This document shows, in pieces, positions 13,591 to 55,997 of a stretch of 57,125 bases of DNA. This stretch comes from Candidatus Nezhaarchaeales archaeon. Its GTDB lineage: Archaea > Thermoproteota > Methanomethylicia > Nezhaarchaeales > WYZ-LMO8. The notes under the pieces were generated by a model that worked only from the letters and a program-made list of their open reading frames with translations, searched no databases and had not been told where the DNA came from. Within the stretch, counting starts at the first letter, position 1. Every line of letters starts with the position of its first letter. Location: the NCBI GenBank assembly GCA_036786905.1, contig DAIQQE010000001.1, forward strand, positions 11,110 through 68,234. Reading direction: 5' to 3'. The position numbers and the translations under genes were made by a program.

Positions 13591-15063
13591 TTGAGGCCTC
13601 TGAAGAGTACAAAGAGCTTGTGTCCTGAATGCCTCCAAGTGGTGGATGCGCTAGTATACGAAGACGGCGGGCGCGTGTACATAGCCAAGTCGTGTCCGCA
13701 ACACGGAGATTACACCGACGTTTACTGGAGCGACTACGAGCTCTATCGCGAGGCCGAGAAGTGGGGGGTCATCGGTGGCGGCGTCTCAAACCCTCAGAGG
13801 AGGAGGGAGAGGGGCTGTCCCTATGACTGCGGCTTGTGCGAGAACCACAGGACGTGCACGGTGTTGGGCATAATAGACGTCACCAATCGCTGTAACCTCA
13901 ACTGCCCCATATGCTTCGCCCACGCCGGAGCCGTCGGCTACCTCTACGAGCCGAGCCCAGAGCAGGTGAGGCAGATGCTGAAGAACCTCAGGAGCGTCAA
14001 GCCGATACCGCCGACGGCCCTCCAGTACTCGGGCGGAGAGCCGACCGTAAGGAAGGACCTTCCAGAGCTCGTGGCCATGGCCAAGGAGGAGGGCTTCAGG
14101 CACGTGGAGGTCAACAGCAACGGAGTGGTGTTGGCGAAGAGCTTGGAGTACTACAAGAGCTTGCTAGACGCGGGCATGTCGACCATCTACCTACAGTTCG
14201 ACGGCTTGACGGACGACATATACGTCAAGACCAGAGGGGTTCCGCTATTGAACGTTAAGTTCAAGGTCATAGAGAATGCGAGGAAGCTGAAGCACGACTC
14301 CATAGTCTTGGTGGTAACCCTGGTCAGAGGCGTTAACGACCACCAAGTGGGCGACATAATGAGGTTCGCGGCCAAGAACTGCGACGTGATTCGAGGAGTG
14401 AACGTCCAGCCAGTTTCCATAACCGGCAGGATCAACAGGGCCGAGCGGGAGAAGATGAGGATAACGATACCCGACTTCATGAGGCTCTGCGAGGAGCAGA
14501 CCAACGGCGCCATCAAGGTCTCTGACTTCAGGCCCGTGCCCTGGCCAGTGGCAATGGCCAAGGCCGTGGGGGTTCTCAAGGGCAAGAGCTATCCAGAGTT
14601 CACGGCCCATCCCCACTGCGGCGTCGCGACCTTCGTATTGGTAGAGGGCGGCGAAATGGTGCCGATCACGAGATACGCCGATGTCGACAAAATGGTCGAG
14701 GACTTCTGGGAAGTCTACAAGCTAGCATCCGAGGGAAAGAGGGTAAGGGCTTACCTCAAGTTGATGAGGATTTCTGGCCGAGTTAGGGGCAAGCTCAAGA
14801 GACGCTTGTTGAGCGTGTTGATCAGGGGATCGTATGACGCGCTGGGGCGGCTTATGAGGGAGATGGTGTTGGTGGGGTGCATGCACTTCATGGATCCCTA
14901 CAACTTCGACCTCGAGAGAGTCGAGAGGTGTTGCATCCACTACGCCCTGCCAGACGGCACCATAAGGCCCTTCTGTAGCTATAACAGCATCCACAGGCCG
15001 GTGGTCGAGAAGGCCCTAAGCGTCCCTTACCCCGTCAGGGCCGAGAGCGCCGGTCATGGCTAA
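13591..15063 (+). CDS. tes: Radical SAM enzyme of the tetraether lipid synthase (Tes / GDGT-MAS) type
   Basis: The N-terminal rubredoxin-like site is SLCPEC...SCPQHG. An auxiliary motif is CPYDCGLCENH, and the radical SAM motif is CNLNCPICFA. 490 aa. The assignment is from remembered family architecture, not from a search. TTG start. Confidence 0.55.
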   Translation: MRPLKSTKSLCPECLQVVDALVYEDGGRVYIAKSCPQHGDYTDVYWSDYELYREAEKWGVIGGGVSNPQRRRERGCPYDCGLCENHRTCTVLGIIDVTNRCNLNCPICFAHAGAVGYLYEPSPEQVRQMLKNLRSVKPIPPTALQYSGGEPTVRKDLPELVAMAKEEGFRHVEVNSNGVVLAKSLEYYKSLLDAGMSTIYLQFDGLTDDIYVKTRGVPLLNVKFKVIENARKLKHDSIVLVVTLVRGVNDHQVGDIMRFAAKNCDVIRGVNVQPVSITGRINRAEREKMRITIPDFMRLCEEQTNGAIKVSDFRPVPWPVAMAKAVGVLKGKSYPEFTAHPHCGVATFVLVEGGEMVPITRYADVDKMVEDFWEVYKLASEGKRVRAYLKLMRISGRVRGKLKRRLLSVLIRGSYDALGRLMREMVLVGCMHFMDPYNFDLERVERCCIHYALPDGTIRPFCSYNSIHRPVVEKALSVPYPVRAESAGHG

Positions 15064-18853: not shown

Positions 18854-19273
18854 TTGAAAGTCCTTAGGACCAAGGCCCTGCTTGACAAGTTGACAATCGA
18901 AGACGCCATGCGATGCCTGCTAGGTCTAAGCAGGGACGAGGTCAAGGTCTACTTCATGCTCCTGAATAAGCCCATGACCGTCGAGGAAATAGCCGAGCTG
19001 TTGAGCAAGAGCAAGCCAACCGCCTACAGGATAGCCGTTAAGCTCACGAACATGGGCCTCTTAATCAGGAGACCATACATAATCGATAGGGGAGGCTATT
19101 ACTACAAGTACGAGGCCGTCGAGCCCGATAAGGTCAAGAAGAGCATTCAAGAGGTCCTGAACCTCGTGTGCAAGAGGGTCTTGGAAGCGCTGAACCAGGA
19201 CTTCATAGAAGTAATGAAGAGGCTACAGAGCAGCGGGTCCAAAGAGGAAGGGGAGGACTTCGACTCCAAGTGA
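18854..19273 (+). CDS. TrmB-like winged-helix transcriptional regulator
   Basis: LLGLSRDEVKVYFMLLNKPMTVEEIAELLSKSKPTAYRIAVKLTNMGLL is the TrmB N-terminal HTH pattern. TTG start, and an internal ATG (MRCLLGLS) is possible. Confidence 0.6.
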   Translation: MKVLRTKALLDKLTIEDAMRCLLGLSRDEVKVYFMLLNKPMTVEEIAELLSKSKPTAYRIAVKLTNMGLLIRRPYIIDRGGYYYKYEAVEPDKVKKSIQEVLNLVCKRVLEALNQDFIEVMKRLQSSGSKEEGEDFDSK

Positions 19274-19356
19274 TCTAGCTGCTTACTAGAGTGCTTCAAC
19301 CCCGATAAACGCTTAACTACCTGTCCACCGCTCCCAAGGCTGGCGGGGATGAAAGT

Positions 19357-19824
19357 TTGTCCACTAGGGTATCGGCCCTCCAAGTTTACAAGTTCCTGCC
19401 CGGGATCAATTGCAAGAAATGCGGAACCACTTGCATGGGCTTCGCAGTCAAGCTCATCAGGAGGGAGGCCAAGATAGAGGACTGCCCCCCGCTCATCGGC
19501 GACCCCAAGTACTCCGATAAGCTGGCGAAGCTCAGAGAGCTCCTGGCGCCCATACTCTCAGCCGCGGAGACGCTGGTTCAGGTGGACCCGGAGAAGTGCA
19601 TAGGATGTGGCAACTGCATAGTGGCGTGCCCCGAAAACGTGATCTTAGACCCGTCGTCGGCCAGGGGGCGCAACCCCAAGAGCCCCGACGCGCTGTGGAC
19701 CGTGGAGGACGGCAAGATAAAGGTCCTGCACCTCGAGAAGTGCAGGCGCTACCCGCCCTCGAGGATGAACTGCAACGTTTGCGAGCTCGTCTGCTATAGC
19801 GGCGCAATAAAGGTGGTGGCTTAG
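19357..19824 (+). CDS. Fe-S protein: N-terminal CdhE/RnfB-type FeS domain plus a ferredoxin-like domain
   Basis: The FeS-domain pattern is YKFLPGINCKKCGTTCMGFAVKL...DCPPL. It is followed by CIGCGNCIVACP and CNVCELVC. TTG start. Confidence 0.65.
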   Translation: MSTRVSALQVYKFLPGINCKKCGTTCMGFAVKLIRREAKIEDCPPLIGDPKYSDKLAKLRELLAPILSAAETLVQVDPEKCIGCGNCIVACPENVILDPSSARGRNPKSPDALWTVEDGKIKVLHLEKCRRYPPSRMNCNVCELVCYSGAIKVVA

Positions 19825-19826
19825 AG

Positions 19827-21062
19827 GTGATGGTCGAGAACGTCGTGTGCACGGGCTGCTCACTACTCTGTGACGACGTCGACGTGGAGGTTGAGGGCCC
19901 CTCGGTGGTCAAGACCAAGGGGGCTTGCAGCCACGGAGACGCGAGGTTAAGGATCCCTCAGCGGAGCAGGCTTAAGGAGGCTTTGGTGAACGGCAATAAG
20001 GTTGACGTCGATAAGGCGATCGACGAGCTTGCAGAGATGTTGAAGTCGGCCAAGAGGCCTCTGATATACGGGGGAGATTGCTCGAGTAACGCTACCATAG
20101 AGTTGGCGCTGAAGGTGGCCGAGAAGCTGGGCGCTTACTACGACGCTCCTTGGTCGATATGTAGGGCCCTAATACCGCTCCAAGAAGAGCTGGGGGTCGA
20201 GGGCTCGAGGCTCGAAGAGACACTCGACGAGGCCGACTTCGTGATCTACTGGGGGGTCAGCGCGGCGGACACCCACTTGCGGCATGCGAGCCGCTACGCG
20301 GTCATGCCTAGGGGCGGCGTGGCAAAGATGGGTAGGGAGAGCAGGATTGTGGCGTCGATCGACGTCAGGGAGTCTATGGGCATGAGGATAGCCCAGCACA
20401 GGGTCCTCATAGACGTTTGCTCGGACGTCGAGGTGGCGAGAGCCATCGCAGACTTAATCGACGGGCGCGCCCCGCGGCTGAGGGCCGAGGTCACGAGACA
20501 ACTGGCCCTTTTGGTCTCGGACCTCAAAAGAGCCTCTTTCGTGGCTATGTTCGTGGGCTCGAGCGCCTTGAGGTGCTCCAAGGACGGAGGAGCCGTGAGA
20601 GCAGTCTTGGAGCTTGCCAAGAAGCTAAGCGCTAGGTGCAAGTGCTCAGTCCACCCGATGGCGGAGAGCGTGAACTCCTACGGCCAGGCGAGGGCCATGT
20701 GGAGGGCCTTGAAGACTTGCTCTCCCTACGACTTCAGAGAGGGGAGGCCGACTGAGCCGATACAGGCCTTAGCCTCGCGAGGGGCCTTGGACCTCGTCTT
20801 CGCCGTTAACAGCGACGTCTTGGCCCACATCCCCCTAGGAGCCTCTAAGATGCTCAGGGGCAGAGTTTGTTGCACGACCGAGCTGAAGAGCGTGACTCAA
20901 GCGCACTCGAGGGTGGCCATACCGGTCAAGATGTTGGGCGTCGAAGCGGGAGGAACCGTGACCAGGACCGACGGCGTCGAGGTAGAGCTCAAGCCCTTCA
21001 TGGCCAACGAGGAAGTCATCAGCGAGGAGGAAGTCTTAAGCCGCTTGTTAGCCCTCATCTAA
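19827..21062 (+). CDS. FwdB/FmdB-like molybdo/tungstopterin oxidoreductase subunit
   Basis: The N-terminus VVCTGCSLLCDDVDVEVEG...GACSHG carries the C-x2-C-x3-C...C Fe4S4 motif and is typical of formylmethanofuran dehydrogenase subunit B. 411 aa. It starts 3 nt after the preceding stop. Confidence 0.65.
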   Translation: MMVENVVCTGCSLLCDDVDVEVEGPSVVKTKGACSHGDARLRIPQRSRLKEALVNGNKVDVDKAIDELAEMLKSAKRPLIYGGDCSSNATIELALKVAEKLGAYYDAPWSICRALIPLQEELGVEGSRLEETLDEADFVIYWGVSAADTHLRHASRYAVMPRGGVAKMGRESRIVASIDVRESMGMRIAQHRVLIDVCSDVEVARAIADLIDGRAPRLRAEVTRQLALLVSDLKRASFVAMFVGSSALRCSKDGGAVRAVLELAKKLSARCKCSVHPMAESVNSYGQARAMWRALKTCSPYDFREGRPTEPIQALASRGALDLVFAVNSDVLAHIPLGASKMLRGRVCCTTELKSVTQAHSRVAIPVKMLGVEAGGTVTRTDGVEVELKPFMANEEVISEEEVLSRLLALI

Positions 21063-21072
21063 GTGACTTGAG

Positions 21073-23454
21073 ATGTCCCAGCGCGACGACGCGTCGAGCC
21101 ACGTAGGGCCAGAAAAGGTGTTGCTCTTCGTATGCAGGTGTGGAACTAACATAGCCGGAGTGGTGGACGTAGAGAGAGTGGTCAAGCACTTCTCTGGGAG
21201 AGAGGGAGTCGTCGTCAGCGACCAAGAGCACTGCTGTAGCGATGAGGGGATTAAGAAGATAAAGGAGGCGATAGAGAAGGAGGGGGCCTCCAGGCTCGTA
21301 ATAGCTTGTTGCACTCCATCGCTCCACGGGGAGCTTTTTAGGAGGGTGGCCGAAGAGGCGGGCTTGAACAGGGGCTTCGTGGAGATAGCGAACATCAGGG
21401 AGCAGTGCTCCTGGGTCCACTACCACGACCCCGCGAGGGCCACCAGCAAGGCGATAGACCTCATAGAGATGGCGTTGGCGGCGGCGCTCTACGCCCTGCC
21501 GGCCAAGGTGGTCAAGGTGCCAGCGGAGCGCTCTGTTCTAGTAGTAGGCGGAGGGGTCGCTGGAGTCACGGCGGCCCTCTCTCTAGCCGAGATGGGCTTC
21601 AAGGTTTACTTAGTGGAGAGGGAGGGCTTCATCGGAGGGCACATGGCGAAGTGGGACAAGGTGTACCCGACGCTCGATTGTAGCATATGCGTCTTGGGGC
21701 CCCGGCTGTCCAAGGCGTACAACCACCCCAATATAGAGATATTGACCTTGAGCGAGGTCAAATCGGTGAAGGGCTTTCCGGGCAACTACGAGGTCGAGGT
21801 TCTTAAGAGGGCTAGGTACGTCGACGAAAGGCTCTGCAACGGGTGCAATAAGTGCCTCGAGGTCTGCCCGATACAGCTCCCCAACGAGTACAACTACGGC
21901 ATCGGGCTTAGATCGGCGGTCGTAAAGCCATATCCCGAGGCAGTCCCCCAAGCCCCGTACATAGACCTGAAGCACTGCATCGGATGCTATTGTTGCGTGG
22001 GGGTCTGCGACCCCAAGGCCATAAACTTCAAGGAAGAGGACAGGGTCGTCAAGCTCAAGGTCGGGGCCATAATAGTGGCTGTGGGCTTCGAGCCCTTCAA
22101 CCCCAAGGCCCTCGACGAATACGGCTACGGCAAGATACCGGACGTCATCACGAGTGCCGAGTACGAGAGGTTATTGAACAGCTCGGGGCCCACAAAGGGG
22201 AGGGTCGTCAGGGTGTCGGACGGTAGAGAGCCCAAGAGAATAGCCTTCATACAATGCGTCGGGAGCAGGAGCGACAGGATAGGCCGCAGGTACTGTAGCA
22301 GGGTGTGCTGCAACAACGCAATAAAGCAGGCCATCCAAACGAAGCTCGCAATGCCCGACGTCGACATCACGATATTCTACGTTGACGTGAGGGCGACGGG
22401 GAGGCTCGCCGAGGAGGCTTACCGACGAGCAATGGACATGGGGATAAACTTCGTCAAGGCGAAGGTAGGCGAGCTGAGGAGGACGAAGAGCGGGAAGGTG
22501 AAGGTATTCTACGAGGACGTCCTGAGCCGCGAGTTCGTGGAAGAGGAGTTCGACTTAGTGGTCTTGAGCGTGGGGATGGAGCCTCCCAAGGGACTCAAGA
22601 GCCTAGCTTCGATGTTGGGGGTGCCCCTGAGCGAGGACGAATTCCTATCTGAGTACCACCTTAAGCTGAACCCCGCCGATACCTTCATTAAAGGGGTCTA
22701 CGTGGCCGGCGCCTGCTCAGGCCCTAAGGACATAACCGAGACCGTGGCCCAAGCCGGCCTGGCGGCGTCCAGGGTCGCGGAGCTCTTGGGTAAGGGAGAG
22801 ATAGAACTCGAGGTGCAGGCTCCGGTGATTGACAGGTCCAAGTGCAAGCTTTGCCTAAACTGCGTCAACGCTTGCCCCTTCGGTGCCATGAGGGCTGGCG
22901 AGGGGGCCGTTGAGGTCGATGAAGTGGCGTGCAGGGGTTGCGGAGCTTGCGCGGCCGCATGCCCCACAGGGGCTCTCACCCCCTCAAGCTACTTAAATGA
23001 CAAGCAGATATCGGCAATGCTGAGAGCCCTGCTGTCGAGGAGGAGCGAGTACCCCATCGTGGTCGCGTTCATGTGCTCGTGGTGCGGCTACGCGGCGGCC
23101 GACAACGCCGGCCTCAACAAGATGCTCTACCCCACCAACGTCAGGATCATCAGGGTCCCCTGTGCGGTGAGGGTCTCCCCAAACCACGTTTTGGAGGCTC
23201 TGAGGCTAGGCGCAGATGGAGTGATGATATTGGGTTGCTACGAACAGGACTGCCACTACAGGGTCGGGAGGGTCAGGGCCAATGAGAGGGTCGAGGTCCT
23301 CAAGGAGCTCTTGAAGAGCGTCGGCATGAGGGCCGAGAGGCTCGTAATAGAGGGAGCGGCCGCATCGGAGGGCAAGAGGGTGGCCGAGCTCGTGAGGTCG
23401 TTCACCGAGAAGGTGGCCGAGCTCGGGCCCGTAGGCTCGGAGTTCGAGGTGTAG
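21073..23454 (+). CDS. hdrA: Heterodisulfide reductase subunit A fused to an MvhD-like C-terminal domain
   Basis: The N-terminal domain is VLLFVCRCGTNIAG and the FAD motif is VLVVGGGVAGVTAAL. Cluster motifs are CNGCNKCLEVCP, CIGCYCCVGVCDP, CKLCLNCVNACP and CRGCGACAAACP. The MvhD-like tail VVAFMCSWCGYAAADNAG...ILGCYEQDCHY spans about 23047..23451. Confidence 0.9.
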   Translation: MSQRDDASSHVGPEKVLLFVCRCGTNIAGVVDVERVVKHFSGREGVVVSDQEHCCSDEGIKKIKEAIEKEGASRLVIACCTPSLHGELFRRVAEEAGLNRGFVEIANIREQCSWVHYHDPARATSKAIDLIEMALAAALYALPAKVVKVPAERSVLVVGGGVAGVTAALSLAEMGFKVYLVEREGFIGGHMAKWDKVYPTLDCSICVLGPRLSKAYNHPNIEILTLSEVKSVKGFPGNYEVEVLKRARYVDERLCNGCNKCLEVCPIQLPNEYNYGIGLRSAVVKPYPEAVPQAPYIDLKHCIGCYCCVGVCDPKAINFKEEDRVVKLKVGAIIVAVGFEPFNPKALDEYGYGKIPDVITSAEYERLLNSSGPTKGRVVRVSDGREPKRIAFIQCVGSRSDRIGRRYCSRVCCNNAIKQAIQTKLAMPDVDITIFYVDVRATGRLAEEAYRRAMDMGINFVKAKVGELRRTKSGKVKVFYEDVLSREFVEEEFDLVVLSVGMEPPKGLKSLASMLGVPLSEDEFLSEYHLKLNPADTFIKGVYVAGACSGPKDITETVAQAGLAASRVAELLGKGEIELEVQAPVIDRSKCKLCLNCVNACPFGAMRAGEGAVEVDEVACRGCGACAAACPTGALTPSSYLNDKQISAMLRALLSRRSEYPIVVAFMCSWCGYAAADNAGLNKMLYPTNVRIIRVPCAVRVSPNHVLEALRLGADGVMILGCYEQDCHYRVGRVRANERVEVLKELLKSVGMRAERLVIEGAAASEGKRVAELVRSFTEKVAELGPVGSEFEV

Positions 23455-23457
23455 GCC

Positions 23458-24762
23458 TTGCAGTCATCTAAGCCTATTGTGGAGGTCGAGGTGGGAGAAG
23501 AGGTCCTTAGCTACAAGTGGAAGGCCCCGGTCTTGGAAAAGAGGCTGGTCTACGATGTTCAGAAGTGCTTCGGCTGTGGCCTCTGCAAAGTCGTGTGCCC
23601 TGTGAGCGCAATATCGATGGGCCCCGTGAAGGAGATAGCGTCGAGGAGGGTCGAGGCCCCCTACATAATAATCGACGAGACGAAGTGCGTCGTCTGCCCC
23701 CTCTGCTCCTCGATATGCCCCTCTGGCGCCTTGAGGGTCGAGGCTCCATCGGACTTCGAACATCCGAGAGTCAAGGGGCGCATAGAGGTGCAACGAGACA
23801 AGTGCATCCCGTGTCTGCTATGCAAGAAGGTCTGCCCGACGAAGGCGATAAAGGCCGAGGTCTCGGTCGAGAGGAGGGAACGCCTCGTCAGGTACCTCCG
23901 AGAGGGGGAGGCTTGGGGCAAGGGGAGGATAAAAATCGAAGTCGAAAAGTGTTGCTTCTGCGGCCTGTGCGAGCTCCTCTGCGACGCTGTAAGGATAGAG
24001 TGGGCTGACCCTCGGCCCCCCGACTTCAGACCAGGGCTTTCGATAACCGTCAGCGAGGAGAAGTGCGACTACTGCGGCCTGTGCGAGAAGATATGTCCCG
24101 TGAAGGCGATAGAGGTCGAGTGCTTGGAGTCCGCGCCCAGAGAGGTCGGCGAGCCCAAGGTTGAGGGCTCGATAGAGGTCGGCGAGGGTTGCTTGTGGTG
24201 CGGGCTCTGTAGCAAGGTCTGCCCAGTGCAAGCAATCGAGGTGGAGAAGCCGTTCGATGGGGACGTATACATGGTCGAGCCGAACGAGTGCGACCCCTCG
24301 GGGTGCAAGAACTGCATCAACATATGCCCGACGAAGGTGGTCTACGTCGCCAAACCCCCGTCGAAGGAGAAGGTGGTCTTCGCGAAGGACTACTGCGTGT
24401 TCTGCGGCGCCTGCGAGAAGTCCTGCCCTGTAGACGCGATCAGGGTCGTCAGGAAGAGCATGAGGGTCGAGGGCTCGAACTCCCCTTGGTTCGGGATGAG
24501 CTACGAGCAATTCAAGAAAGTCCTGCAGGGCTACAGGCCCTCTAAGCCGAGCATTTACCACAGGACCGTCAAGATAGAGGAGGTGCCGACGGCCCTTCCA
24601 CAGCCATCGCCCATTCCCCCGACTCCTAAGGGCTTTGACAAAGCAGTCGAGGGCATCAATAAGGTCATGGAGTTGCTGTCCAACGTGCCAGGAAGGGTCC
24701 TCTTCGAGCGCCGCGAGGTCGATAAGTTGCTCTCGAGGCTAAGAGGTGAAGAGGGTGACTAG
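23458..24762 (+). CDS. Polyferredoxin with eight [4Fe-4S] binding motifs (FwdF/MvhB-like) plus a non-Fe-S tail of about 100 aa
   Basis: Eight motifs: CFGCGLCKVVCP, CVVCPLCSSICP, CIPCLLCKKVCP, CCFCGLCELLCD, CDYCGLCEKICP, CLWCGLCSKVCP, CKNCINICP, CVFCGACEKSCP. TTG start 4 nt after the hdrA stop. Confidence 0.85.
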   Translation: MQSSKPIVEVEVGEEVLSYKWKAPVLEKRLVYDVQKCFGCGLCKVVCPVSAISMGPVKEIASRRVEAPYIIIDETKCVVCPLCSSICPSGALRVEAPSDFEHPRVKGRIEVQRDKCIPCLLCKKVCPTKAIKAEVSVERRERLVRYLREGEAWGKGRIKIEVEKCCFCGLCELLCDAVRIEWADPRPPDFRPGLSITVSEEKCDYCGLCEKICPVKAIEVECLESAPREVGEPKVEGSIEVGEGCLWCGLCSKVCPVQAIEVEKPFDGDVYMVEPNECDPSGCKNCINICPTKVVYVAKPPSKEKVVFAKDYCVFCGACEKSCPVDAIRVVRKSMRVEGSNSPWFGMSYEQFKKVLQGYRPSKPSIYHRTVKIEEVPTALPQPSPIPPTPKGFDKAVEGINKVMELLSNVPGRVLFERREVDKLLSRLRGEEGD

Positions 24763-25095
24763 ACTAGTGGGCTCTCCGCTAGACTTGGAGACCACGACCT
24801 TGATCACCGACGAGTGTTGGCTTGGGCTTAGAAGCGCCATGGCATGGGGCGCGGGCGCCATGAAGGCCAGACCTCTCTTGACGCCGCTACTTATCCTCGC
24901 CCGGACCTTCACCGAGCCCTGTGGAGAGGAGACTTCCACGACGTCGCCCTCATTGACTCCGATGGAAGACGCGTCCTCTTGGCTCAAGTATATAGTCGCC
25001 GACTCTTTGAAGTACTCCTCGCTCAAGGACCCGAGGCGTTTAGCCCTCTCAAAGTCGTGGAAGCCCTCTAGGACTAGAGTGAGCTCGAGTCTCAT
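24739..25095 (-). CDS. FwdD/FmdD-like molybdopterin-dinucleotide-binding (Molydop_binding) protein, encoded antisense to the surrounding cluster
   Basis: MRLELTLVLEG...IYLSQEDASSIGVNEGDVVEVSSPQGSVKVRARIS...GLAFMAPAPHAMALL resembles FwdD (L.L.TGR...; ..eD...LGV.eGD.V.V.S..G.V.V.a; G...iP.gPwAn). The ORF is open to 25155, but Met21 (ATG 25095) matches family N-termini and the TATA position. Confidence 0.65.
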   Translation of the reverse strand: MRLELTLVLEGFHDFERAKRLGSLSEEYFKESATIYLSQEDASSIGVNEGDVVEVSSPQGSVKVRARISSGVKRGLAFMAPAPHAMALLSPSQHSSVIKVVVSKSSGEPTSLVTLFTS

Positions 25096-25111
25096 GGCGA
25101 GTCTATAGGGG

Positions 25112-25597
25112 GTGGAGACCATAAATAAGCTTTCCTCGGAGCCCAAGAAGTGCATTCAGTGCGGCGCCTGCACCTCGACTTGCGTCGTCTCGAGGGCCAC
25201 TAAGAGGTTCAACCCTAGGTTGTTGGTCTACGCCGCTAAGAAGGGATTGCTGACGGAGAGCGAGGACATATGGCTATGCCTGAACTGCCACATCTGTGAG
25301 GCTAGGTGCCCCGACTCGGTCAAGATCTCGGACATGATACTTGAGGCTAGAAGGAGGGTCTTGGAGAGGCACGGCGAGGACAGGGTCTTGGAGTTCTACT
25401 CGAGCTTCGTCAGGGCTCTGCTCAACAGCGGCGTGATAGCCTTCGTCACCAGCAGCAGGGTCGAGGACTTCAAGTCAGAGAGCGGGCTCAACGTCCCGGC
25501 GCTTGCTGAGCCCTTGAAGTCGGAGCTCCGCGAGTTCTTGAAGAAGATAAACTTAGAGGTCAGATTGAGAGAGGTTATGGGAATTGAGAGGGAGTGA
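25112..25597 (+). CDS. hdrC: Heterodisulfide reductase subunit C
   Basis: Motifs are CIQCGACTSTC and CLNCHICEARCP. 161 aa with a GTG start. It overlaps the hdrB start by 14 bp. Confidence 0.8.
   Translation: METINKLSSEPKKCIQCGACTSTCVVSRATKRFNPRLLVYAAKKGLLTESEDIWLCLNCHICEARCPDSVKISDMILEARRRVLERHGEDRVLEFYSSFVRALLNSGVIAFVTSSRVEDFKSESGLNVPALAEPLKSELREFLKKINLEVRLREVMGIERE
25121..25128 (-). promoter_or_regulatory. TATA-like box (TTATTTAT on the minus strand) for the FwdD-like gene, embedded in the hdrC coding sequence
   Basis: The plus strand reads ataaataa. The centre lies about 29 nt upstream of ATG 25095, consistent with leaderless geometry. Confidence 0.4.
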
Positions 25598-26456
25598 GGA
25601 GAGAAGGGAGGTCGTCCTATACCCCGGTTGCGTCTCCCTCAATAAGTACCCTGGGATCGTAAAGTCGTCGATCGAGTTGTTAAAGCTCCTCAACGTGAAC
25701 GTCAAGCTCCCAACTAACATGCTGTGCTGCTCGCGCCCTCTCGAGAGGATAGGGATTATAGGGGAAGAACACACGAATGCGCTCGCCTACTTTAACATAG
25801 CCAAGCTCATGGGCAACCCGGACGAGGTCGTGGTGGTGTGCAATGGTTGCTACCTAGCTTTTCGTAGGGCGCTTGAGGGCGACGATTTAAAGAGGGACCT
25901 AAGTGTCAGGGCCAAGTGCTACCACGTGGCCGAGATTCTGTGGCACAACAGGCGCGAGCTAGCCGAGAGGGCGAGGGTTGGGCTCGACAAGTTGAAGGTG
26001 GCGATCCACGTGGGCTGCCACTATCTCTTCTACCCTCACGGCGACGTCATCAGAGGAGAGGAGGGGGAGGACATTTTAGAGGACATAGCCCTCGCACTTA
26101 ACGCGAGCGTAGTTGACTACGAGGAGAGGCGGACCTGTTGCGGAGGGACTATCGTCAAGTGGTTCAGAGAAGTCGCTTCCTCAATACCTAAGAGGAAGTT
26201 AGAGAGCGTCATGGAAAGCGGGGCCAACGTCATCTTGACAATGTGCCCCTACTGCTTGAGGACCTTCAACAGAGTCCAGCAGAGGCTCAAGAAGCTTAAG
26301 AAGATTGAGAGGGTCGTGCCGACGCTCCACGTCTCCCAGCTCGTCGCAATAGCCTTGGGCTTGGACCCCCTGAGGGTCGCTGGGCTCCACCTGCAAATGC
26401 CGGCCCAAGAGCTTGAGGCCCTGCGCAGCCTCTTGACTTCTCAATCTCCGCCTTGA
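25584..26456 (+). CDS. hdrB: Heterodisulfide reductase subunit B (two CCG-type domains)
   Basis: The first Cys set is YPGC...LCCS...CNGC. The second is HVGC...TCCGG...MCPYC. 290 aa. Confidence 0.85.
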   Translation: MRGSEERREVVLYPGCVSLNKYPGIVKSSIELLKLLNVNVKLPTNMLCCSRPLERIGIIGEEHTNALAYFNIAKLMGNPDEVVVVCNGCYLAFRRALEGDDLKRDLSVRAKCYHVAEILWHNRRELAERARVGLDKLKVAIHVGCHYLFYPHGDVIRGEEGEDILEDIALALNASVVDYEERRTCCGGTIVKWFREVASSIPKRKLESVMESGANVILTMCPYCLRTFNRVQQRLKKLKKIERVVPTLHVSQLVAIALGLDPLRVAGLHLQMPAQELEALRSLLTSQSPP

Positions 26457-35132: not shown

Positions 35133-35831
35133 TCAAGAGGACCTTGAAGAGGCCGGGTCGTCTACGCGGAAAGGCGCACGCCCCTGTGGATCGCGAGCGC
35201 TAGAGCGGGGGTCAACGCTCCTCCTCTTGTCCTCTAAGTAGTCGAGGTAGCGCTGGTAGAGCTCAACGGCCTCGCGAAACTGCTTTGGGTACATGGTCTC
35301 CAGCTGGCTTAAGATCCCGCCTATAGTGTCTTGGTCCCTCACGGCTCGGAGCAACGCCAACAACACGTCCTCGCTCTCACGGCCCCTGCACGGAATCTCC
35401 ACGGTCATGCCGAGCTTGAAGAGGCCCGCCAACAGCAAGTGCGGAGGGGAGGAGCCTATTAGGACCCCCCTCTCGAGCTCCACGAGCTTAGGAACTCCCT
35501 TCTTGTCGAGCCTAGCCGGGCTAGTTAGCGACCCGTAGGCCTTCTTTGCATAGCAGTGAACCTCTACGTAGACGTCAGGGCGGTAGCGCCTCAGCAAGCA
35601 CACGAGCCTCCTGCCCTCCTTTGTCTCTAGGTATCTCTGGCTCAGCGTGCTCACGTATCTCGCCCTGAGGCACAGAGAGGGCACGACGACCAGCGTACCG
35701 CTCTGCGGCCCCCCGTCGCGCACGAAGCGCTCGAGGACCCTCTTGGTTACGACGCCCTCCCTGCCGTGAAGCCCTCCGACGACGAGCCTCCTCAGGCCCC
35801 TCTTCCTAGACCTGAGCGCGTACACCCTCAA
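35133..35831 (-). CDS. Uncharacterised protein, possibly DUF2119 / degenerate M14 (AstE/AspA-like) fold
   Basis: VVGGLHGREG near the N-terminus resembles the GGxHGxE motif of succinylglutamate-desuccinylase/carboxypeptidase-like proteins. TTG start, with TATA-like elements 31-49 nt upstream. The family call is tentative. Confidence 0.4.
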   Translation of the reverse strand: MRVYALRSRKRGLRRLVVGGLHGREGVVTKRVLERFVRDGGPQSGTLVVVPSLCLRARYVSTLSQRYLETKEGRRLVCLLRRYRPDVYVEVHCYAKKAYGSLTSPARLDKKGVPKLVELERGVLIGSSPPHLLLAGLFKLGMTVEIPCRGRESEDVLLALLRAVRDQDTIGGILSQLETMYPKQFREAVELYQRYLDYLEDKRRSVDPRSSARDPQGRAPFRVDDPASSRSS

Positions 35832-45068: not shown

Positions 45069-45081
45069 ATGGTATTACCAT
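45069..45081. promoter_or_regulatory. 13-bp palindrome ATGGTATTACCAT overlapping the cbiM start codon (candidate operator)
   Basis: Read directly from the sequence. It is preceded by the inverted repeat ttatc-tgttt-gataa and a TATA-like aaagcttaaaac at about 45036..45049. Confidence 0.3.
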
Positions 45082-45742
45082 GCACATACCCGACGGCTTT
45101 CTCGACGCTTGGACGGCATCGATAACCTACGCTATTGCCGTGGGCTGTGGGCTCCTCCTCTGGAAGAAGTCTAAGAGGGCCCTAAGGGTCGAAGAAATAT
45201 CGCTTCTGACGGTGCTCTCAGCCGCCATATTTGTGGCCCAAATGCTGAACTGGCCCTTGCCCGGAGGGACGAGCCTTCACTTCGTCGGCGGGGCTCTCGC
45301 AGGAATGCTCTTGGGCCCATTCCTGGGCTTCGCATCTATGACCCTAGTGCTGGTGGTGCAGTGTCTGCTCTTCCACGACGGCGGCATCACGGCGTTAGGG
45401 GCAAACGTCTTGAACATGGCCGTAATAAACGTGCTAGTGGGCTACGCGCTATTCAAGCTGATCGTCATGATCGCAGGTAATAAACGTAGTTCGAGGATGG
45501 CAGGGGCCTTCCTAGGGGCGTGGCTCGGCATCGTGCTCGCCGGCCTCGCGTGCGGCCTCGAGATAGGCCTGTCACCCTCGTTCGGCTTCTACATAGACGT
45601 GACGGTCCCCATAATGGCTGGTTGGCACGCGCTCTTAGGCATAGTAGAGGGCGTCATAACGGCCCTCGTGGTGGAGTACCTGTATGTGAGGCTACCGCTA
45701 GCGATCCCCTCACTGATCCCTCAAGAGGTGGTTGAGAGGTGA
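45080..45742 (+). CDS. cbiM: ECF-type cobalt/nickel transporter substrate-capture component CbiM/NikM
   Basis: The N-terminus MHIPDGFL is the conserved metal-binding N-terminus of CbiM/NikM. 220 aa with multiple TM helices. Confidence 0.85.
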   Translation: MHIPDGFLDAWTASITYAIAVGCGLLLWKKSKRALRVEEISLLTVLSAAIFVAQMLNWPLPGGTSLHFVGGALAGMLLGPFLGFASMTLVLVVQCLLFHDGGITALGANVLNMAVINVLVGYALFKLIVMIAGNKRSSRMAGAFLGAWLGIVLAGLACGLEIGLSPSFGFYIDVTVPIMAGWHALLGIVEGVITALVVEYLYVRLPLAIPSLIPQEVVER

Positions 45743-46074
45743 CCCCCACGAACTTCGTAAAGAGCAAGAAGATCTGGACTGCCATAGCGTTGATGTTGAT
45801 CGTGAGCCCACTGTTCGGAGTCATATTAGCTGACGTGGTCGGCTATCACGAGCCCTTGGACGTGGCCGCAGAGGCCGCGGGGCTACGCGACGTAAGCGAG
45901 GAGATCACTTGGACGCCGTTCTTCGACTACGGCATCCCAGGACTCCCATCCGAGGTGGGCTACGCAATGGCAGGGGCACTGGGCGTGGCAGTCATAGTCG
46001 TAGTGGGTTACGTAGCGATGAAGGTGGTCGAGAGGCGAAGAGGGGGTCACGGGGCTTGCCTAAAGGCCTACTGA
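45739..46074 (+). CDS. PDGLE-domain membrane protein (CbiN/NikN-equivalent)
   Basis: Two TM segments flank GYHEPLDVAAE, a variant of the PDGLE motif. GTG start overlapping the cbiM stop by 4 bp. Confidence 0.6.
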   Translation: MTPTNFVKSKKIWTAIALMLIVSPLFGVILADVVGYHEPLDVAAEAAGLRDVSEEITWTPFFDYGIPGLPSEVGYAMAGALGVAVIVVVGYVAMKVVERRRGGHGACLKAY

Positions 46075-46091
46075 TATCGTTTCTCAATGGC

Positions 46092-46835
46092 ATGGCCGAG
46101 GTCATCGAGGCCTTCTCCGTCGAGAGAGGTGACCGCGAGGGCCTGCCCGATCCGAGGGCTCTCTTAGTGTCCCTCATAGCCTTGGCGATCGCCGTCTCCT
46201 TCTCGAGGAGCATTTACCCCCCAATCATAGTCCTAGCGATGTCCATCCCCCTCTCAAGGGCCCTCGGCGTGAAGCTTAGGAGCATGGCTAGGGTCGCAAC
46301 GGCGATCTCGGCCTTCGTCTTGGCCGTAACACTCCCCATGGCTCTCTATCGAGCGTACTTGGACGATTCATCGTTATCTAACTTAGTAGCGCTTGCACAG
46401 GTTCTCGCTCCGCTTCTCGTGAGGTGCGTCGCGGCCACGTTGATGCTCGTGCTCATGGCGCAGAGCCTAGGGCTTACAGGGCTCATCACCGGGCTTAGGG
46501 GGTTGAGGGTCCCTCCGAAGGCTCTGTTCGTGTTAATGCTCTTCCTGAGGTACGTCCCGATAATGCTGAGAGATGCGGCGAGGCTCTTATCCGCTCGCGA
46601 GGCGCGCATGGCCTCGGGCACGAATAGGATCAAGAGCTCTTGGCTCGTGCTCTCGACGGTCGCTGGTAGCTTGTTTATTAGAGGCTTCGACAGGGCCTAC
46701 AGGCTCCAAATGGCCTTTAAGGCCAGGGGCTTGGACTTCGTCTTCATCCCCAAACCCGGGGTCGGGCCGGGCCCGCTGGATCTGACCGTGGTGGCGCTCT
46801 CGCTGGCGCTGGCGTGTTTGCTGGTGTTGATGTGA
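46092..46835 (+). CDS. cbiQ: ECF transporter transmembrane (T) component CbiQ
   Basis: Hydrophobic protein of about 247 aa, located between the cbiM/N-like genes and cbiO. The track ORF starts at 45909 inside the previous gene in an R/G-rich frame, so ATG 46092 is preferred. Confidence 0.7.
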   Translation: MAEVIEAFSVERGDREGLPDPRALLVSLIALAIAVSFSRSIYPPIIVLAMSIPLSRALGVKLRSMARVATAISAFVLAVTLPMALYRAYLDDSSLSNLVALAQVLAPLLVRCVAATLMLVLMAQSLGLTGLITGLRGLRVPPKALFVLMLFLRYVPIMLRDAARLLSAREARMASGTNRIKSSWLVLSTVAGSLFIRGFDRAYRLQMAFKARGLDFVFIPKPGVGPGPLDLTVVALSLALACLLVLM

Positions 46836-46836
46836 G

Positions 46837-47691
46837 ATGAGGAGGTTCGAGGGCGAGTACTTGATAGAGGTCGAGGGCGTCTCCTTCACCTACCCAGACG
46901 GCACGCGCGCCCTCAGGGGCGTAAGCGCTAAGGTGAGGCACAGGAGCGTGGTCGCGATAACCGGCGCCAACGGGTCTGGAAAGAGCACTTTGCTGATGTT
47001 GATGGCCGGGCTCCTCGAGCCTCAAGAAGGCGTCGTGAGGTTCAGGGGCGTCGAAGTCAAGAGGCTCGGCTACGAGCTGAGGCGAGAGGTGGGCGTGGTC
47101 TTCCAAGACCCGGATGACCAGCTCTTCGCGCCAACGGTCTTCGACGACATAGCATTCGGCTTAAGGATTCTGAGGCTCCCTGACCAAGAGGTGAGGCTCA
47201 GGGTCAATGAAGTGGCCCGTGAGTTGGGAGTAGAGCACCTCTTGGACAAGCCGCCCTTCAGGCTCAGCGGCGGCGAGAAGCGGAAGGTCGCCTTGGCGAC
47301 GGCCCTCGTCCTAAGGCCTTCAGTGCTCCTGCTCGACGAGCCCTTCTCCGAGCTCTCGCCACAAGCGTCTCGACGCCTGATGGACATGATATCGGAGTAC
47401 AAAAAGGGCGGCGGCACCGTGGTGTTCACGAGCCACGACGTCGACGTGGTCGCCGAGCTCTCGGACTACGTGTACGTGCTCCATGAAGGGCGAGTAGTGG
47501 CTCACGGAAGGCCAGAAGAGGTCCTGTGCGACGACGAGCTACTGGCCAGGGCAGAGCTCAGGCCGCCCACGGCGACGATGTTGTACAGAGAGCTCATCGG
47601 CAGGGGCAGGCGATGTCCGATAAGGGTGTCGGAGCTCTTGGCGGAGCTCAAGAGGGTATTCAGGGCTCTAGAGGCACGTGCTACGACCTAG
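46837..47691 (+). CDS. cbiO: ECF transporter ATPase CbiO
   Basis: Walker A is GANGSGKST, the signature motif is LSGGEKRKV, and Walker B is LLLDEP. 284 aa. Confidence 0.9.
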   Translation: MRRFEGEYLIEVEGVSFTYPDGTRALRGVSAKVRHRSVVAITGANGSGKSTLLMLMAGLLEPQEGVVRFRGVEVKRLGYELRREVGVVFQDPDDQLFAPTVFDDIAFGLRILRLPDQEVRLRVNEVARELGVEHLLDKPPFRLSGGEKRKVALATALVLRPSVLLLDEPFSELSPQASRRLMDMISEYKKGGGTVVFTSHDVDVVAELSDYVYVLHEGRVVAHGRPEEVLCDDELLARAELRPPTATMLYRELIGRGRRCPIRVSELLAELKRVFRALEARATT

Positions 47692-47858: not shown

Positions 47859-48269
47859 TCAAGGCCTCAGCTCTCTAAGCAATGTTTCTACCGTGATTGC
47901 CTCGGGGAACCTCATGAGTTCAGAGTCCTCGGTGACCAGCTTCAGCCCCTCCCTCCTAGCCACGTAGACGTAAGAGGCGTCGTAAAAGGTCACGCCGCTC
48001 TCCGCAGCCACGTCGAGGACCTCAGAGATCCTCGACCCGATGCTAAACCTCTTCAAGTCCCTCATCATCTCTTCGAACATTTCCGCTATGGGTGCTAAGC
48101 GCTTGATCGCCCCCCTTCTATGCGCTTTCCACAGGGCGTTCCCCACCTCGTAGACCGTCAGGTCCAGCACGGCGAGGCGGTCTCTGTACGACAACAGGCC
48201 CTCTCTCAGTCTCAGGACCAGCGGGTACAGGGCCGACGCGTCGAGCAGGTATTTGATGCGCGAGGTCAA
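47859..48269 (-). CDS. vapC: PIN-domain toxin VapC
   Basis: The conserved acidic residues are in context: YLLDASALYPL, ...E..., TFYDASYVYVA, VTEDSEL. 136 aa. Confidence 0.85.
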   Translation of the reverse strand: MTSRIKYLLDASALYPLVLRLREGLLSYRDRLAVLDLTVYEVGNALWKAHRRGAIKRLAPIAEMFEEMMRDLKRFSIGSRISEVLDVAAESGVTFYDASYVYVARREGLKLVTEDSELMRFPEAITVETLLRELRP

Positions 48270-48275
48270 GCGAGG

Positions 48276-48509
48276 TCACCCCTCGAGCCTCGACTCCTTA
48301 ACGACCTTCACCCACTCCTCCTCTTTCAGGTCCATCGACCTCAGGGCCTCATCTATCAAGTTCTTCGCCCTCTCCATCCTCGCCCTCTCGATCTCCGCCT
48401 CCAGCGCCCTCTCAATAACTTCCTTCAGATTTATCCCGAGCCTCTCGGCTTCCTCCTTTAGCTCCTTCCGCACCCTTATTGAGAGAACAGCCGTAGACAA
48501 GGACCTCAC
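48276..48509 (-). CDS. vapB: VapB-type antitoxin (RHH/CopG-like)
   Basis: VLSIRVRKELKEEAERLGINLKEVIERALEAEI is the typical antitoxin N-terminus. It ends 6 nt upstream of vapC. The track ORF starts at 48572, but GTG 48509 lies 28 nt downstream of a TATA box. Confidence 0.65.
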   Translation of the reverse strand: MRSLSTAVLSIRVRKELKEEAERLGINLKEVIERALEAEIERARMERAKNLIDEALRSMDLKEEEWVKVVKESRLEG

Positions 48510-54760: not shown

Positions 54761-54769
54761 GCCCTCCCC

Positions 54770-55480: not shown

Positions 55481-55997
55481 CGACGACCACCCACTTGGAG
55501 CCCCTCGACCCGTAGTGCGTCGTGAAGACGACCCTCAAGGGCCTCGCGGCGTCTAGGTCCTCTACGGCCGCGAAGGCCCTTATCAAGCAGGCCTCACCAG
55601 TATCTATGAGGGGGTGCTCTGTAAAGCTGACGCCGTAGCTCTCGACGAGGAAGACCTCTTCGACGGTCCAATCAGCTGGGTGGGAGAGCCTCAACGACTT
55701 GAGCGGCCCGCTCGTCGAGAAGTACTCGACTATCAGGTCGCACGCCTCGAACCTGTACACAGGATAGGGGCCCTCGTTCAGGACCGTGACGTTGACCTCC
55801 AGCAACCCCCTCGAGTAGCTCGCGCTGGCCCGCTGAATGGTTATCCTGCTCAGCCTCTTGTAGGCGATTTCGTAGCCCTCCCTTATGCTGTTCACGGCCA
55901 TCGAGATCGACGAGCCTATGGCGCCGACGATTGAGAGGGCGGCTATTATGAGCAGGACGACTGCCGCGACGCCCGGCACGACGACCTCTGAGGGCAT
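55467..55997 (-). CDS. arlF: Archaellum stator-associated protein ArlF (FlaF), assigned by synteny
   Basis: An N-terminal TM helix is followed by a beta-rich domain. It is the second of two FlaF/FlaG-like genes upstream of arlH. In the Sulfolobus operon order flaX-flaG-flaF-flaH-flaI-flaJ, this is the flaF position. Confidence 0.55.
   Translation of the reverse strand: MPSEVVVPGVAAVVLLIIAALSIVGAIGSSISMAVNSIREGYEIAYKRLSRITIQRASASYSRGLLEVNVTVLNEGPYPVYRFEACDLIVEYFSTSGPLKSLRLSHPADWTVEEVFLVESYGVSFTEHPLIDTGEACLIRAFAAVEDLDAARPLRVVFTTHYGSRGSKWVVVDAQG

Follow-up and report, generated by a model that had tools for sequence, protein, structure and literature searches.

Gene organization of the cluster

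We analysed a cluster of eight adjacent genes in a 57,125-nucleotide stretch of archaeal DNA (the window; contig DAIQQE010000001.1, assembly GCA_036786905.1). The cluster was found to encode a TrmB-like regulator, an iron-sulfur protein with a CdhE/RnfB-type FeS domain (FwdG'), a FwdB-like subunit (FwdB'), HdrA fused to an MvhD-like domain, a FwdF-type polyferredoxin (FwdF'), a FwdD-like Molydop-binding protein (FwdD'), HdrC, and HdrB. It is a candidate for a single soluble complex in which a tungsten/molybdenum (W/Mo) module is wired to an HdrA2-type flavoprotein. A preliminary description, made from the sequence letters, had placed these genes at 18854–26456; all eight were recovered there, and their families were confirmed by Pfam, NCBIfam, and PDB searches (Table 1). 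For comparison, one genome per GTDB species was searched by a pattern-plus-tblastn scan and screened with the window proteins, which gave 80 related loci (numbered with the prefix L).

From the FeS gene through fwdB' and hdrA to the polyferredoxin gene, the gaps were found to be 2, 10, and 3 bp, in agreement with the spacing of 2–10 bp described earlier for the plus-strand genes from 19357 to 24762, and they suggest co-transcription. The regulator gene lies 83 bp upstream of this operon. Its product scored 53 bits against the Sta1 model NF053606, under the cut-off, and a positional orthologue was found only in L005 and L006. The 3' end of fwdD', which is on the opposite strand, shares 24 bp with the polyferredoxin gene, and this tail-to-tail pairing was conserved in L005–L008 and in the arrangement of the Bathyarchaeia, Korarchaeia, and Thorarchaeota. 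The true start of fwdD' is probably M21 at 25095, 16 bp from the start of hdrC, as judged from an alignment with 8rja_D in which residue 42 of FwdD' was paired with residue 21. The HdrC call on the public contig has 125 amino acids (aa) and would drop the first [4Fe-4S] motif; a 161-aa model with a GTG start at 25112 was preferred because seven relatives keep both cluster motifs.

The NCBIfam models of FwdB (TIGR03129), FwdD (NF042908), and FwdF (NF042909) gave 257, 34, and 242 bits against cut-offs of 327.8, 175, and 375, respectively. Those of HdrB and HdrC gave 121.6 and 64.7 bits against cut-offs of 345 and 160. The best NCBIfam model for the window HdrA was that of HdrA2 (NF040770), which matched across the full length with 981 bits against a cut-off of 1100.

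Table 1. Genes of the cluster, followed by other features of the window mentioned in the text
Feature	Coordinates	Strand	Supporting match
TrmB/Lrs14(Sta1)-type winged-helix regulator	18854–19273	+	PF01978, 47.7 bits (cut-off 25.6)
FeS-domain FwdG-like protein (FwdG'), 155 aa	19357–19824	+	PF04060, E 2.7e-13; 5t5i_G, 4.6e-9
FwdB-like subunit (FwdB')	19827–21062	+	PDB FwdB/FmdB, E ~1e-41
HdrA fused to MvhD/FlpD (HdrA2 architecture)	21073–23454	+	5odc_A, 647 bits; 5odc_D, 114 bits; PF02662, 4e-46
FwdF-type polyferredoxin (FwdF')	23458–24762	+	5t5i_F, 1.2e-50, residues 27–336
FwdD-like pterin-cap subunit (FwdD')	24739–25155	-	PF01568, 51 bits; 8rja_D, 6e-8
HdrC	25112–25597	+	two [4Fe-4S] motifs; TIGR03290, 65 bits (under cut-off)
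HdrB	25584–26456	+	PF02754, 80.5 bits, two stretches
Aldehyde:ferredoxin oxidoreductase (AFOR), tungsten type, 590 aa	3882–6073	+	AFOR_N/AFOR_C
Tetraether lipid synthase (Tes)	13591–15063	+	NF045702, 635 bits (cut-off 450)
Short XPF (ERCC4), 225 aa	33562–34239		
DUF2119 protein	35133–35831	-	PF09892, 160 bits
Cobalt/nickel transporter, energy-coupling factor type	45080–47691	+	
PIN-domain gene and small upstream partner	47859–48500	-	
Archaellum operon	51350–56483		
176-aa open reading frame	55467–55997	-	no Pfam match

Active site, fold, and phylogeny of the FwdB-like subunit

The N-terminal C-x2-C-x3-C...C motif of FwdB' that had been described earlier was found intact as C8-x2-C11-x3-C15...C34 and would bind a [4Fe-4S] cluster. 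In an alignment with five solved FwdB/FmdB structures, C112 of FwdB' was aligned with the tungsten-ligand Cys118 (5T5I numbering). C112 and the four cluster cysteines were invariant in the sub-clade of the window protein (the window clade), down to 36% identity. The second sphere of the active site was different, with His119 replaced by Arg113 and Arg288-Gly289 replaced by Ala279-Glu280, so that FwdB' reads C112-R113 ... P-M-A279-E280-S-V-N in place of the canonical C/U-H-G ... R-G-H-x-N. The canonical C-H ... R-G was present in 11 canonical representatives and in four aligned PDB sequences; 9sfi_Q, the fifth solved FwdB, has selenocysteine at the place of the Cys. Arg288 was missing from 80/80 loci of the census, where the position was occupied by A, V, S, P, L, or D. 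Glu280 was invariant in the window clade, and the residue after the Cys ligand varied between R, H, Q, and K.

The Cys ligand was conserved in most members of the wider clade. It was substituted by Tyr in L016 and L017, by Gly in L019 and L020, by Ser in L056, L060, and L069, by Thr in L063, and by Ala in L084. The HdrA/polyferredoxin context was kept in L017, L019, L020, and L084, which indicates that catalysis at a Cys-ligated metal is not universally required in clusters of this kind.

The Pfam families named in the preliminary description were matched in the case of PF01568, PF04060, PF02754, and PF02662, and PF00384 (Molybdopterin) gave no match to FwdB' at E ≤ 0.01. The similarity of FwdB' to the formate dehydrogenase FdhF was weak and partial (1aa6_A, 5.8e-9), and the PF00384 match, the Arg, and the His of a formate dehydrogenase (FDH) were all lacking. 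The AlphaFold2 model of FwdB' had a mean predicted local distance difference test score of 89.5, and Foldseek gave template modelling scores of 0.89–0.91 to 5t5m_B, 8rja_B, and 7bkb_H. The FwdB chains were followed in the ranking by NuoG, FhcB (6s6y), FdhF, and ElpA (8rvu_D), several of which are pterin-less scaffolds. The columns that are invariant in canonical FwdB were retained to 62% in the window clade, 77% in the Methanothrix/Bathyarchaeia type, and 62% in Cys-less homologues, a comparison that does not discriminate cofactor binding.

In metal-dependent FDHs, the second-sphere Arg is considered the binding site of formate, CO2, and azide, and an exchange of the His and Arg shifts the specificity toward nitrate (PMC10385643). 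A nitrate-reductase-like pocket, with Thr/Met at the Arg/His positions (PMC10385643), was considered for FwdB' and rejected because its residues differ.

In a simple neighbor-joining tree (Kimura distances, 60 bootstrap replicates), all of the sampled FeS-linked sequences (33/33) fell into one clade apart from canonical FwdB in 98% of the replicates, and the window sub-clade of seven sequences had 100% support. A representative library of 1.84 billion proteins contained 942 proteins that matched FwdB' at E ≤ 1e-3. The signature of the window sub-clade, S-[IV]-C-[RHQK] ... A-E-x-x-N-[SC]-x-G, was found in the window protein and in six among the best 150 of these 942. Canonical fused FwdDB representatives carried only Methanoculleus names and one Hodarchaeales name, which is uninformative for the Nezhaarchaeia. 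By sequence, FwdB' stands apart as a paralogue whose active site is altered, and it belongs to an FeS-linked, Arg-less FwdB' clade of the fwdG2B2D2 type, which we define here. The published fwdG2B2D2 of Methanosarcina acetivorans would itself belong to this clade, as suggested by the Methanosarcina loci L055 and L083.

Iron-sulfur protein, polyferredoxin, and Hdr subunits

The FeS protein was found to be composed of two halves. The N-terminal half matched RnfB and the large subunit of the corrinoid iron-sulfur protein (the RnfB/CdhE-type 'FeS' domain), and the C-terminal half matched FwdG (9sfi_U, 7e-10; 5t5i_G as in Table 1). Its 12 Cys residues probably bind three clusters. The polyferredoxin had been described as containing exactly eight CxxCxxCxxxC(P) motifs. 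Eight [4Fe-4S] sites were present, of which seven had the canonical CxxCxxCxxxC motif and one the variant Cx4CxxCxxxCP (C278–C290); the same pattern of seven and one was kept in relatives. At its C-terminus the protein is extended by about 95 aa that contain no Cys. It scored 254 bits against the hdrA2-linked polyferredoxin of Methanosarcina and 176 bits against FwdF in the PDB, and its gene was located directly downstream of hdrA in all of the loci that have a polyferredoxin (16/16).

HdrA contained a GGGVAG motif for flavin adenine dinucleotide, four CxxCxxCxxxC motifs, and N-terminal Cys cluster(s), as well as the fused MvhD-like domain, so the flavin motif, the four ferredoxin motifs, and the fusion noted at the outset were all found. 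The inserted and C-terminal ferredoxin domains and the fused C-terminal [2Fe-2S] MvhD domain place it in the HdrA2 subclass. HdrB contained all ten Cys residues of its two CCG domains, spaced as C16-x31-CC-x36-CxxC and C145-x39-CC-x34-CxxC. As noted before, the first doublet reads CCS, and the second is CCG; the CCS variant was common to L005 and L006, and CCG was found in more distant relatives. With two non-cubane-cluster Cys sets in HdrB and two [4Fe-4S] motifs in HdrC, the set is that of a soluble HdrABC.

Distribution of related loci

The FeS-domain gene was located directly upstream of fwdB' in 78/80 loci. The two exceptions were L009, in which the contig end cuts it off, and L019, in which it is about 5 kb away. 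A FwdD-like gene was found nearby in 72/80 loci. The full arrangement of the window was also present in L005 and L006 (Nezhaarchaeota) and L007 (Baldrarchaeota); L010 had the same arrangement with no FwdD detected, and L008 and L009 (Methanomethylicia-like) had it without HdrBC. The cluster is not a chance association, because its gene set and order recur in L005, L006, L007, and L010. A second arrangement, in which FwdD is followed by polyferredoxin and HdrA on the other strand and then by FeS-FwdB, was found in Bathyarchaeia, Korarchaeia-like, Thorarchaeota, and Baldrarchaeum loci. The Baldrarchaeota, Bathyarchaeia, and Thorarchaeota, which have this cluster type, are lineages generally regarded as being without Mcr.

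Outside the Methanothrix/Methanoperedens group there were 23 loci, one of Methanosarcina included; hdrA was present in 17 of them and a polyferredoxin in 16, and the linkage to hdrA persisted down to 31–44% protein identity. The hdrA2-polyferredoxin pair of Methanosarcina sp. Ant1 (L055) is about 2 kb from FeS-FwdB-FwdD. A small FtrB-like gene with a CPC motif (ferredoxin:thioredoxin-reductase catalytic-subunit type; L055 8770–9114; NF041072, 83 bits, under the cut-off) was observed between the two. About 55 loci of Methanothrix, Methanoperedens, and related organisms contained only the FeS-FwdB'-FwdD' triplet with no hdrA within 10 kb. The module is spread over Methanothrix, Methanosarcina (fwdG2B2D2), Bathyarchaeia, Korarchaeia, Asgard lineages, and Thermoproteota.

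The protein identities ranged from 66 to 92% with L005/L006 and from 32 to 79% with L007/L010. The FeS protein was the most conserved component, with 92, 85, 61, and 79% identity to L005, L006, L007, and L010, respectively, followed by HdrA with 86, 80, 60, and 70%. The values for FwdB' were 78, 66, 40, and 40%, and those for FwdD' were 82, 72, and 35% with L005, L006, and L007.

Genes of C1 metabolism near related loci

In seven loci (L007, L008, L012, L014, L016, L017, and L084) the cluster was flanked by cdhA/C/D/E and cooC; the flanking CdhA and CdhE scored 1218 and 548 bits, both over the cut-off. A FwdA-like amidohydrolase (TIGR03121, 350 bits against a cut-off of 393) adjoined the module in four loci, one of Baldrarchaeum and three of Jordarchaeia. 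In the Jordarchaeia (L047, 7503–11275; L024; L048) the genes occur as FwdD-FwdA-FeS-FwdB' in a row, and FwdB' keeps Cys-His-Gly with an Ala at the Arg288 position. The Jordarchaeia set may be a functional Arg-less Fwd. In the Helarchaeota genome Hel_GB_A (L063, 7794–15499), a FwdB' without the Cys ligand (Thr) or the Arg was found beside Mch and a genuine FwdC (TIGR03122, 257 bits, over the cut-off), a locus reminiscent of the Fhc complex of methylotrophic bacteria, which is pterin-less.

In three thermophilic Methanothrix-like loci (L018, L022, and L037), an HdrD/TfrB-like protein of 440–466 aa with CCG and 4Fe-4S motifs was encoded upstream of the FeS gene at a distance of about 1 kb. On sequence grounds this is a second, different tie of the FeS-FwdB'-FwdD' module to proteins of the disulfide-reductase type. 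The other neighbours of the Methanothrix module look on inspection like unrelated housekeeping genes and gave no functional clue. The Cdh, FwdA-like, FwdC, and Mch neighbours tie the clade to the Wood-Ljungdahl pathway. These ties temper the inference that a protein without the Arg has no CO2/formate chemistry, and they argue against an unrelated substrate.

Source organism and flanking genes

The window matches a metagenome-derived contig of 68 kb. The source is an uncultured hot-spring archaeon of the Thermoproteota, nearest to Nezhaarchaeales/"Verstraetearchaeota", a group with methanogens among its members. The closest named homologues of the FwdB-like protein were from Candidatus (Ca.) Nezhaarchaeales metagenome-assembled genomes (67–68% identity), that of the Nezhaarchaeota WYZ-LMO8 locus L006 was 66% identical, and a 'Ca. 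Verstraetearchaeota' protein is among the members of the cluster formed at 90% identity around the archaellum ATPase ArlI. These matches place the window organism in or near the class Methanonezhaarchaeia, which has a cultured methanogen and two sister families that are without Mcr and have largely kept the Wood-Ljungdahl pathway (PMC12700198). The earlier label of an apparent crenarchaeon with a non-methanogenic complex was therefore too strong.

Pfam scans and phmmer detected no FwdA, FwdC, hydrogenase, FdhA, Mcr/Mtr, or Cdh in the window, in agreement with the absence of FwdA, FwdC, MvhAG, FdhA, and methanogenesis genes reported before. The lack of fwdA and fwdC in 57 kb says little, because the cultured Ca. 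Methanonezhaarchaeum fastidiosum YNP3N has a separate canonical FwdABCD cluster elsewhere in the genome, beside other Wood-Ljungdahl genes (PMC12700198). No tRNA or Rfam elements were found in the window. The base composition was even, with a G+C content of 54–61%, and had no island signature.

The AFOR gene is preceded by a gene for a 140-aa Fer4_11 ferredoxin-like protein, and the 90% cluster of the AFOR has 37 members, many of them from Joint Genome Institute metagenomes. The radical-SAM gene between the AFOR gene and the cluster was considered as a methanopterin-biosynthesis methylase on account of its Pfam 'HMPTM' zinc ribbon. This assignment was rejected, as the protein is Tes, the synthase of glycerol dialkyl glycerol tetraether lipids; the Pfam name by itself is misleading. 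Of the flanking genes in the preliminary description, the short XPF and the archaellum genes (ArlJ/ArlI/ArlH-type genes and flagellin) were confirmed; the ArlX label of the 176-aa open reading frame between ArlH and flagellin found no support in Pfam. A DUF2119 protein of an archaea-specific family is encoded near the short XPF. The transporter genes encode CbiM, a PDGLE-domain protein in the CbiN position, CbiQ, and an ATP-binding-cassette ATPase, and are followed by a PIN-domain gene and its small partner, likely a toxin-antitoxin pair.

Proposed function

The cluster is naturally read as a flavin-based bifurcating or Hdr-coupled complex. From the computed gene content, intact motifs, fold, conserved synteny, clade membership, and altered active site, we infer complex formation, metal and pterin content, a type of substrate, and the possible directions of electron flow. 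We consider it moderately probable that the genes encode one soluble 'Fwd-Hdr' complex, in which a Wood-Ljungdahl-associated W/Mo module is wired to an HdrA2-type flavoprotein. The intact parts, the 2–10 bp gaps, the linkage to hdrA, the FeS partner, the FwdB fold, the C1 neighbours, and the expressed cluster of YNP3N support this reading. A single complex is favoured because polyferredoxins dock on HdrA in solved assemblies and because the characterised HdrA2B2C2 has the same HdrA-MvhD fusion.

In such a complex, FwdB'D' would hold a [4Fe-4S] cluster of its own and a W/Mo-pyranopterin site to which Cys112 would provide the protein ligand. Electrons would pass between FwdB'D', FwdG' (about three clusters), the FwdF' polyferredoxin (eight clusters), and the ferredoxin-domain branch of HdrA, so that about 11 Fe-S clusters would link the W/Mo module to the flavoprotein. 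HdrC and HdrB would form the high-potential branch to a disulfide, which would be CoM-S-S-CoB (the heterodisulfide of coenzymes M and B) if the organism makes it. By analogy with the solved Fdh-Hdr-Fmd and Hdr-Vhu-Fwd assemblies, the W/Mo module is expected on the low-potential branch of HdrA. In an inward mode, a formate-type C1 substrate would be oxidised at the W/Mo site and the electrons would flow downhill to the disulfide; this mode agrees with the ferredoxin:heterodisulfide activity that was measured for HdrA2B2C2 of M. acetivorans and with the proposed physiology of Ca. Methanonezhaarchaeum. In an outward mode, a mid-potential donor of the type of reduced coenzyme F420 (F420H2) at HdrA2/MvhD would be bifurcated to the disulfide and to a CO2-type reduction at the W/Mo site.

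Several points weigh against this reading. The second-sphere His and Arg are exchanged in FwdB', the loss of the Arg is clade-wide, and no clade-specific Arg that might compensate was seen at conserved positions apart from Arg113, which the wider clade does not conserve. The parts needed for the bifurcating CO2/formate-type or novel-substrate oxidoreductase of the preliminary description were found, and an Hdr-coupled reading is natural, but the active-site Arg and His expected for CO2/formate were missing. Some relatives keep the cluster and have lost the Cys ligand. The FeS protein and HdrA diverge more slowly than FwdB' and FwdD', the presumed catalytic subunits, which are the least constrained. 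All cluster subunits score under the NCBIfam equivalog cut-offs and are family-level relatives. The cluster encodes no donor module besides FwdB'D'. No biochemistry of the YNP3N Fwd-Hdr cluster or of fwdG2B2D2 was found in the literature searched.

An alternative, which we regard as unlikely, is that the complex is the same and FwdB'D' converts some other substrate in place of CO2/formate, the remodelled pocket (Cys-Arg/His/Gln/Lys with Ala-Glu) conferring a new W/Mo specificity coupled to Hdr. The absence of Arg288 in 80/80 loci, against its presence in the five solved FwdB/FmdB and the 11 canonical representatives, is what such a change would look like; exchange at two pocket positions moves FDH specificity toward nitrate (PMC10385643), Glu280 is invariant in the window clade, and the clade is monophyletic apart from canonical FwdB. 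A separate canonical FwdABCD is also retained in YNP3N. In other lineages, however, the genes nearby belong to C1/Wood-Ljungdahl metabolism (cdh, FwdA-like, FwdC, Mch) and none marks a different pathway, the residues differ from the Thr/Met pair of nitrate reductase (the one pair among MopB subfamilies that was compared), and the residue beside the Cys is variable, unlike a tuned pocket.

It is equally improbable, in our view, that FwdB'D' is a non-catalytic scaffold or electron-entry module, pterin-less or redox-inert, in which case HdrA2BC would be a ferredoxin/F420H2:disulfide reductase with the FeS protein and the polyferredoxin as docking wires. The fold search, which ranked NuoG, FhcB, and ElpA right after FwdB, the missing PF00384 match, the faster evolution of FwdB' and FwdD', the substitution of the Cys ligand in several clade members with an intact cluster context, and the retention of canonical-invariant positions at the level of Cys-less homologues (62%) are consistent with a scaffold. 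There are precedents in ElpA, which has no pterin domain and yet is part of an Hdr complex (PMC12350162), and in the Cys-less Molybdop of hdrA clusters (PMC12054007). Against this, neither Cys112 nor any of the four cluster Cys varies in the window clade, a FwdD-like cap subunit is still encoded, and motifs common with canonical FwdB persist. The AFOR of the window indicates that the organism makes a tungstopterin cofactor, though the synthesis of bis-pyranopterin guanine dinucleotide is not thereby shown. The loss of the Cys ligand in several members with the cluster context kept need not mean a loss of the cofactor, as the Mo of arsenite oxidase has no protein ligand.

Least probable is that two uncoupled enzymes share the neighbourhood, a ferredoxin-dependent FwdG'B'D' as in Methanothrix and an HdrA2-polyferredoxin-HdrBC reductase as in Methanosarcina: the roughly 55 loci without hdrA, the N-terminal FeS domain as a possible ferredoxin docking site, and fwdD' on the opposite strand would fit this, but the linkage to hdrA in 17/23 loci with two arrangements in several phyla, the 10-bp gap between fwdB' and hdrA, and a polyferredoxin that is FwdF-like along its full length, with FwdG as the known partner of FwdF, all argue for coupling.

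Beyond the single Fwd-Hdr complex, which remains our preferred reading, we suggest tentatively, and consider it rather doubtful, that FwdG', Arg-less FwdB', and FwdD' form a W/Mo enzyme family of Wood-Ljungdahl archaea with non-canonical chemistry, which in this organism and in presumed Mcr-less lineages is wired by polyferredoxin to HdrA2 as a methanogenesis-independent bifurcating complex. If this were true, it would explain the persistence of Hdr in non-methanogenic archaea; what soluble Hdr does in archaea that have no Mcr is a recognised riddle, and its conservation has been called 'puzzling' in a study of Korarchaeia (PMC10667645). The cluster type offers a concrete, purifiable partner for Hdr in archaea without Mcr, and it occurs in the cultured YNP3N and, as separate modules, in the genetically tractable Methanosarcina. 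If FwdB' still interconverts CO2 and formate, the list of essential residues needs revision. Otherwise, an archaeal W/Mo enzyme of wide distribution awaits assignment and the published model of a 'formate-oxidising Fwd-Hdr' must change. We therefore regard the cluster as a moderately interesting, directly testable target and not as a categorically new system. The elements that are new here relative to the literature searched are the FeS-linked clade of FwdB', the clade-wide loss of the Arg, the linkage to HdrA2 and polyferredoxin, and the neighbourhood of CODH/ACS (carbon monoxide dehydrogenase and acetyl-CoA synthase) genes. In the literature searched, no dedicated study of the FwdB' clade was found.

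Comparison with known systems

Compared with canonical Fwd, FwdB' has the [4Fe-4S] motif and the Cys ligand and lacks His119 and Arg288, and FwdA and FwdC are not in the window. The pterin-less MopB-fold scaffolds FhcB (6S6Y), ElpA (8RVU_D), and NuoG have the FwdB/FdhA fold and, with no canonical catalytic residues, are retained in complexes for electron transfer or C1 metabolism, and Cys-less 'Molybdop' proteins have been reported in hdrA clusters of Methanosarcinales (PMC12054007). These scaffolds have lost the Cys ligand and/or the pterin domain, whereas Cys112, a modelled fold of full FwdB length, and a FwdD-like cap are retained in the window.

The solved supercomplexes are Fdh-Hdr-Fmd of Methanospirillum hungatei (7BKB), Hdr-Vhu-Fwd of Methanococcus maripaludis (9SFI; PMC13518236), and Elp-Hdr-Fmd of M. 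marburgensis (8RVU; PMC12350162). Their HdrABC, MvhD, FwdF-type polyferredoxin, FwdG, and FwdB/D all have clear homologues in the window. In these assemblies the polyferredoxins (FmdF, VhuB/MvhB, and FwdF) bind HdrA at its inserted ferredoxin domain and pass low-potential electrons on to FwdG and FwdB, and MvhD is the connector to the donor module (PMC13518236, PMC12350162). The window differs in lacking FwdA, FwdC, and any separate donor module (Mvh, Fdh, or Elp), in the fusion of MvhD to HdrA, in the extra FeS domain of FwdG, and in a FwdB' without His119 and Arg288.

Among biochemically characterised enzymes, the HdrA-MvhD architecture of the window is found only in HdrA2B2C2 of M. acetivorans, which carries out ferredoxin-dependent heterodisulfide reduction and bifurcation from F420H2 (Yan, Wang & Ferry 2017; PMC5296606). 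HdrA2 and the polyferredoxin MA2867 share with the window both the fusion and a polyferredoxin gene directly downstream, and the window HdrA is 44% identical to a Methanosarcina HdrA2. The hdrB2C2 genes of Methanosarcina are located elsewhere; the window adds the FwdG'B'D' genes to the operon. The fwdG2B2D2 of M. acetivorans consists of three genes without fwdA/C and is constitutively expressed (Rohlin & Gunsalus 2010; PMC2838876). Together with the Methanothrix/Methanoperedens triplets, it would share with the window the FwdB' clade, an FeS-domain FwdG, a FwdB without Arg288, and FwdD, with no FwdA/C. The identity between this type and the window is about 30%; its motif is C-Q/L ... V-G in contrast to C-R ... 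A-E in the window, and it is mostly not beside hdrA.

The closest published system is that of YNP3N, for which a co-located FwdBD-FwdF-FwdG-HdrABC was described and reported to be expressed in culture along with other arrangements of this sort (Kohtz, Nupp & Hatzenpichler, Sci Adv 2025; PMC12700198). Its soluble HdrABC operon has no associated FdhAB or MvhAG, and the authors proposed, as a hypothesis, a 'Fwd-Hdr complex' in which formate oxidation is coupled to reducing both heterodisulfide and ferredoxin (PMC12700198). The preliminary description had allowed that this cluster might already have a characterised function in a close relative; it has been described in YNP3N, at the level of that hypothesis. 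The formate proposal rests on annotation, and the available portions of the report do not mention the missing Arg/His (PMC12700198). Because both residues are absent from FwdB', the published 'formate-oxidising' assignment rests on a pocket without the expected residues. YNP3N is a distinct taxon, with a G+C content of 53% as compared with about 59% in the window, and it was likened to the window by its published description, which the window fits in gene content and in the absence of FdhAB and MvhAG. The close relative L006 (WYZ-LMO8) has a gene order identical to that of the window, with protein identities of 66–85%. The cluster type has thus already been reported in a sister lineage, and the window is a further instance of it.

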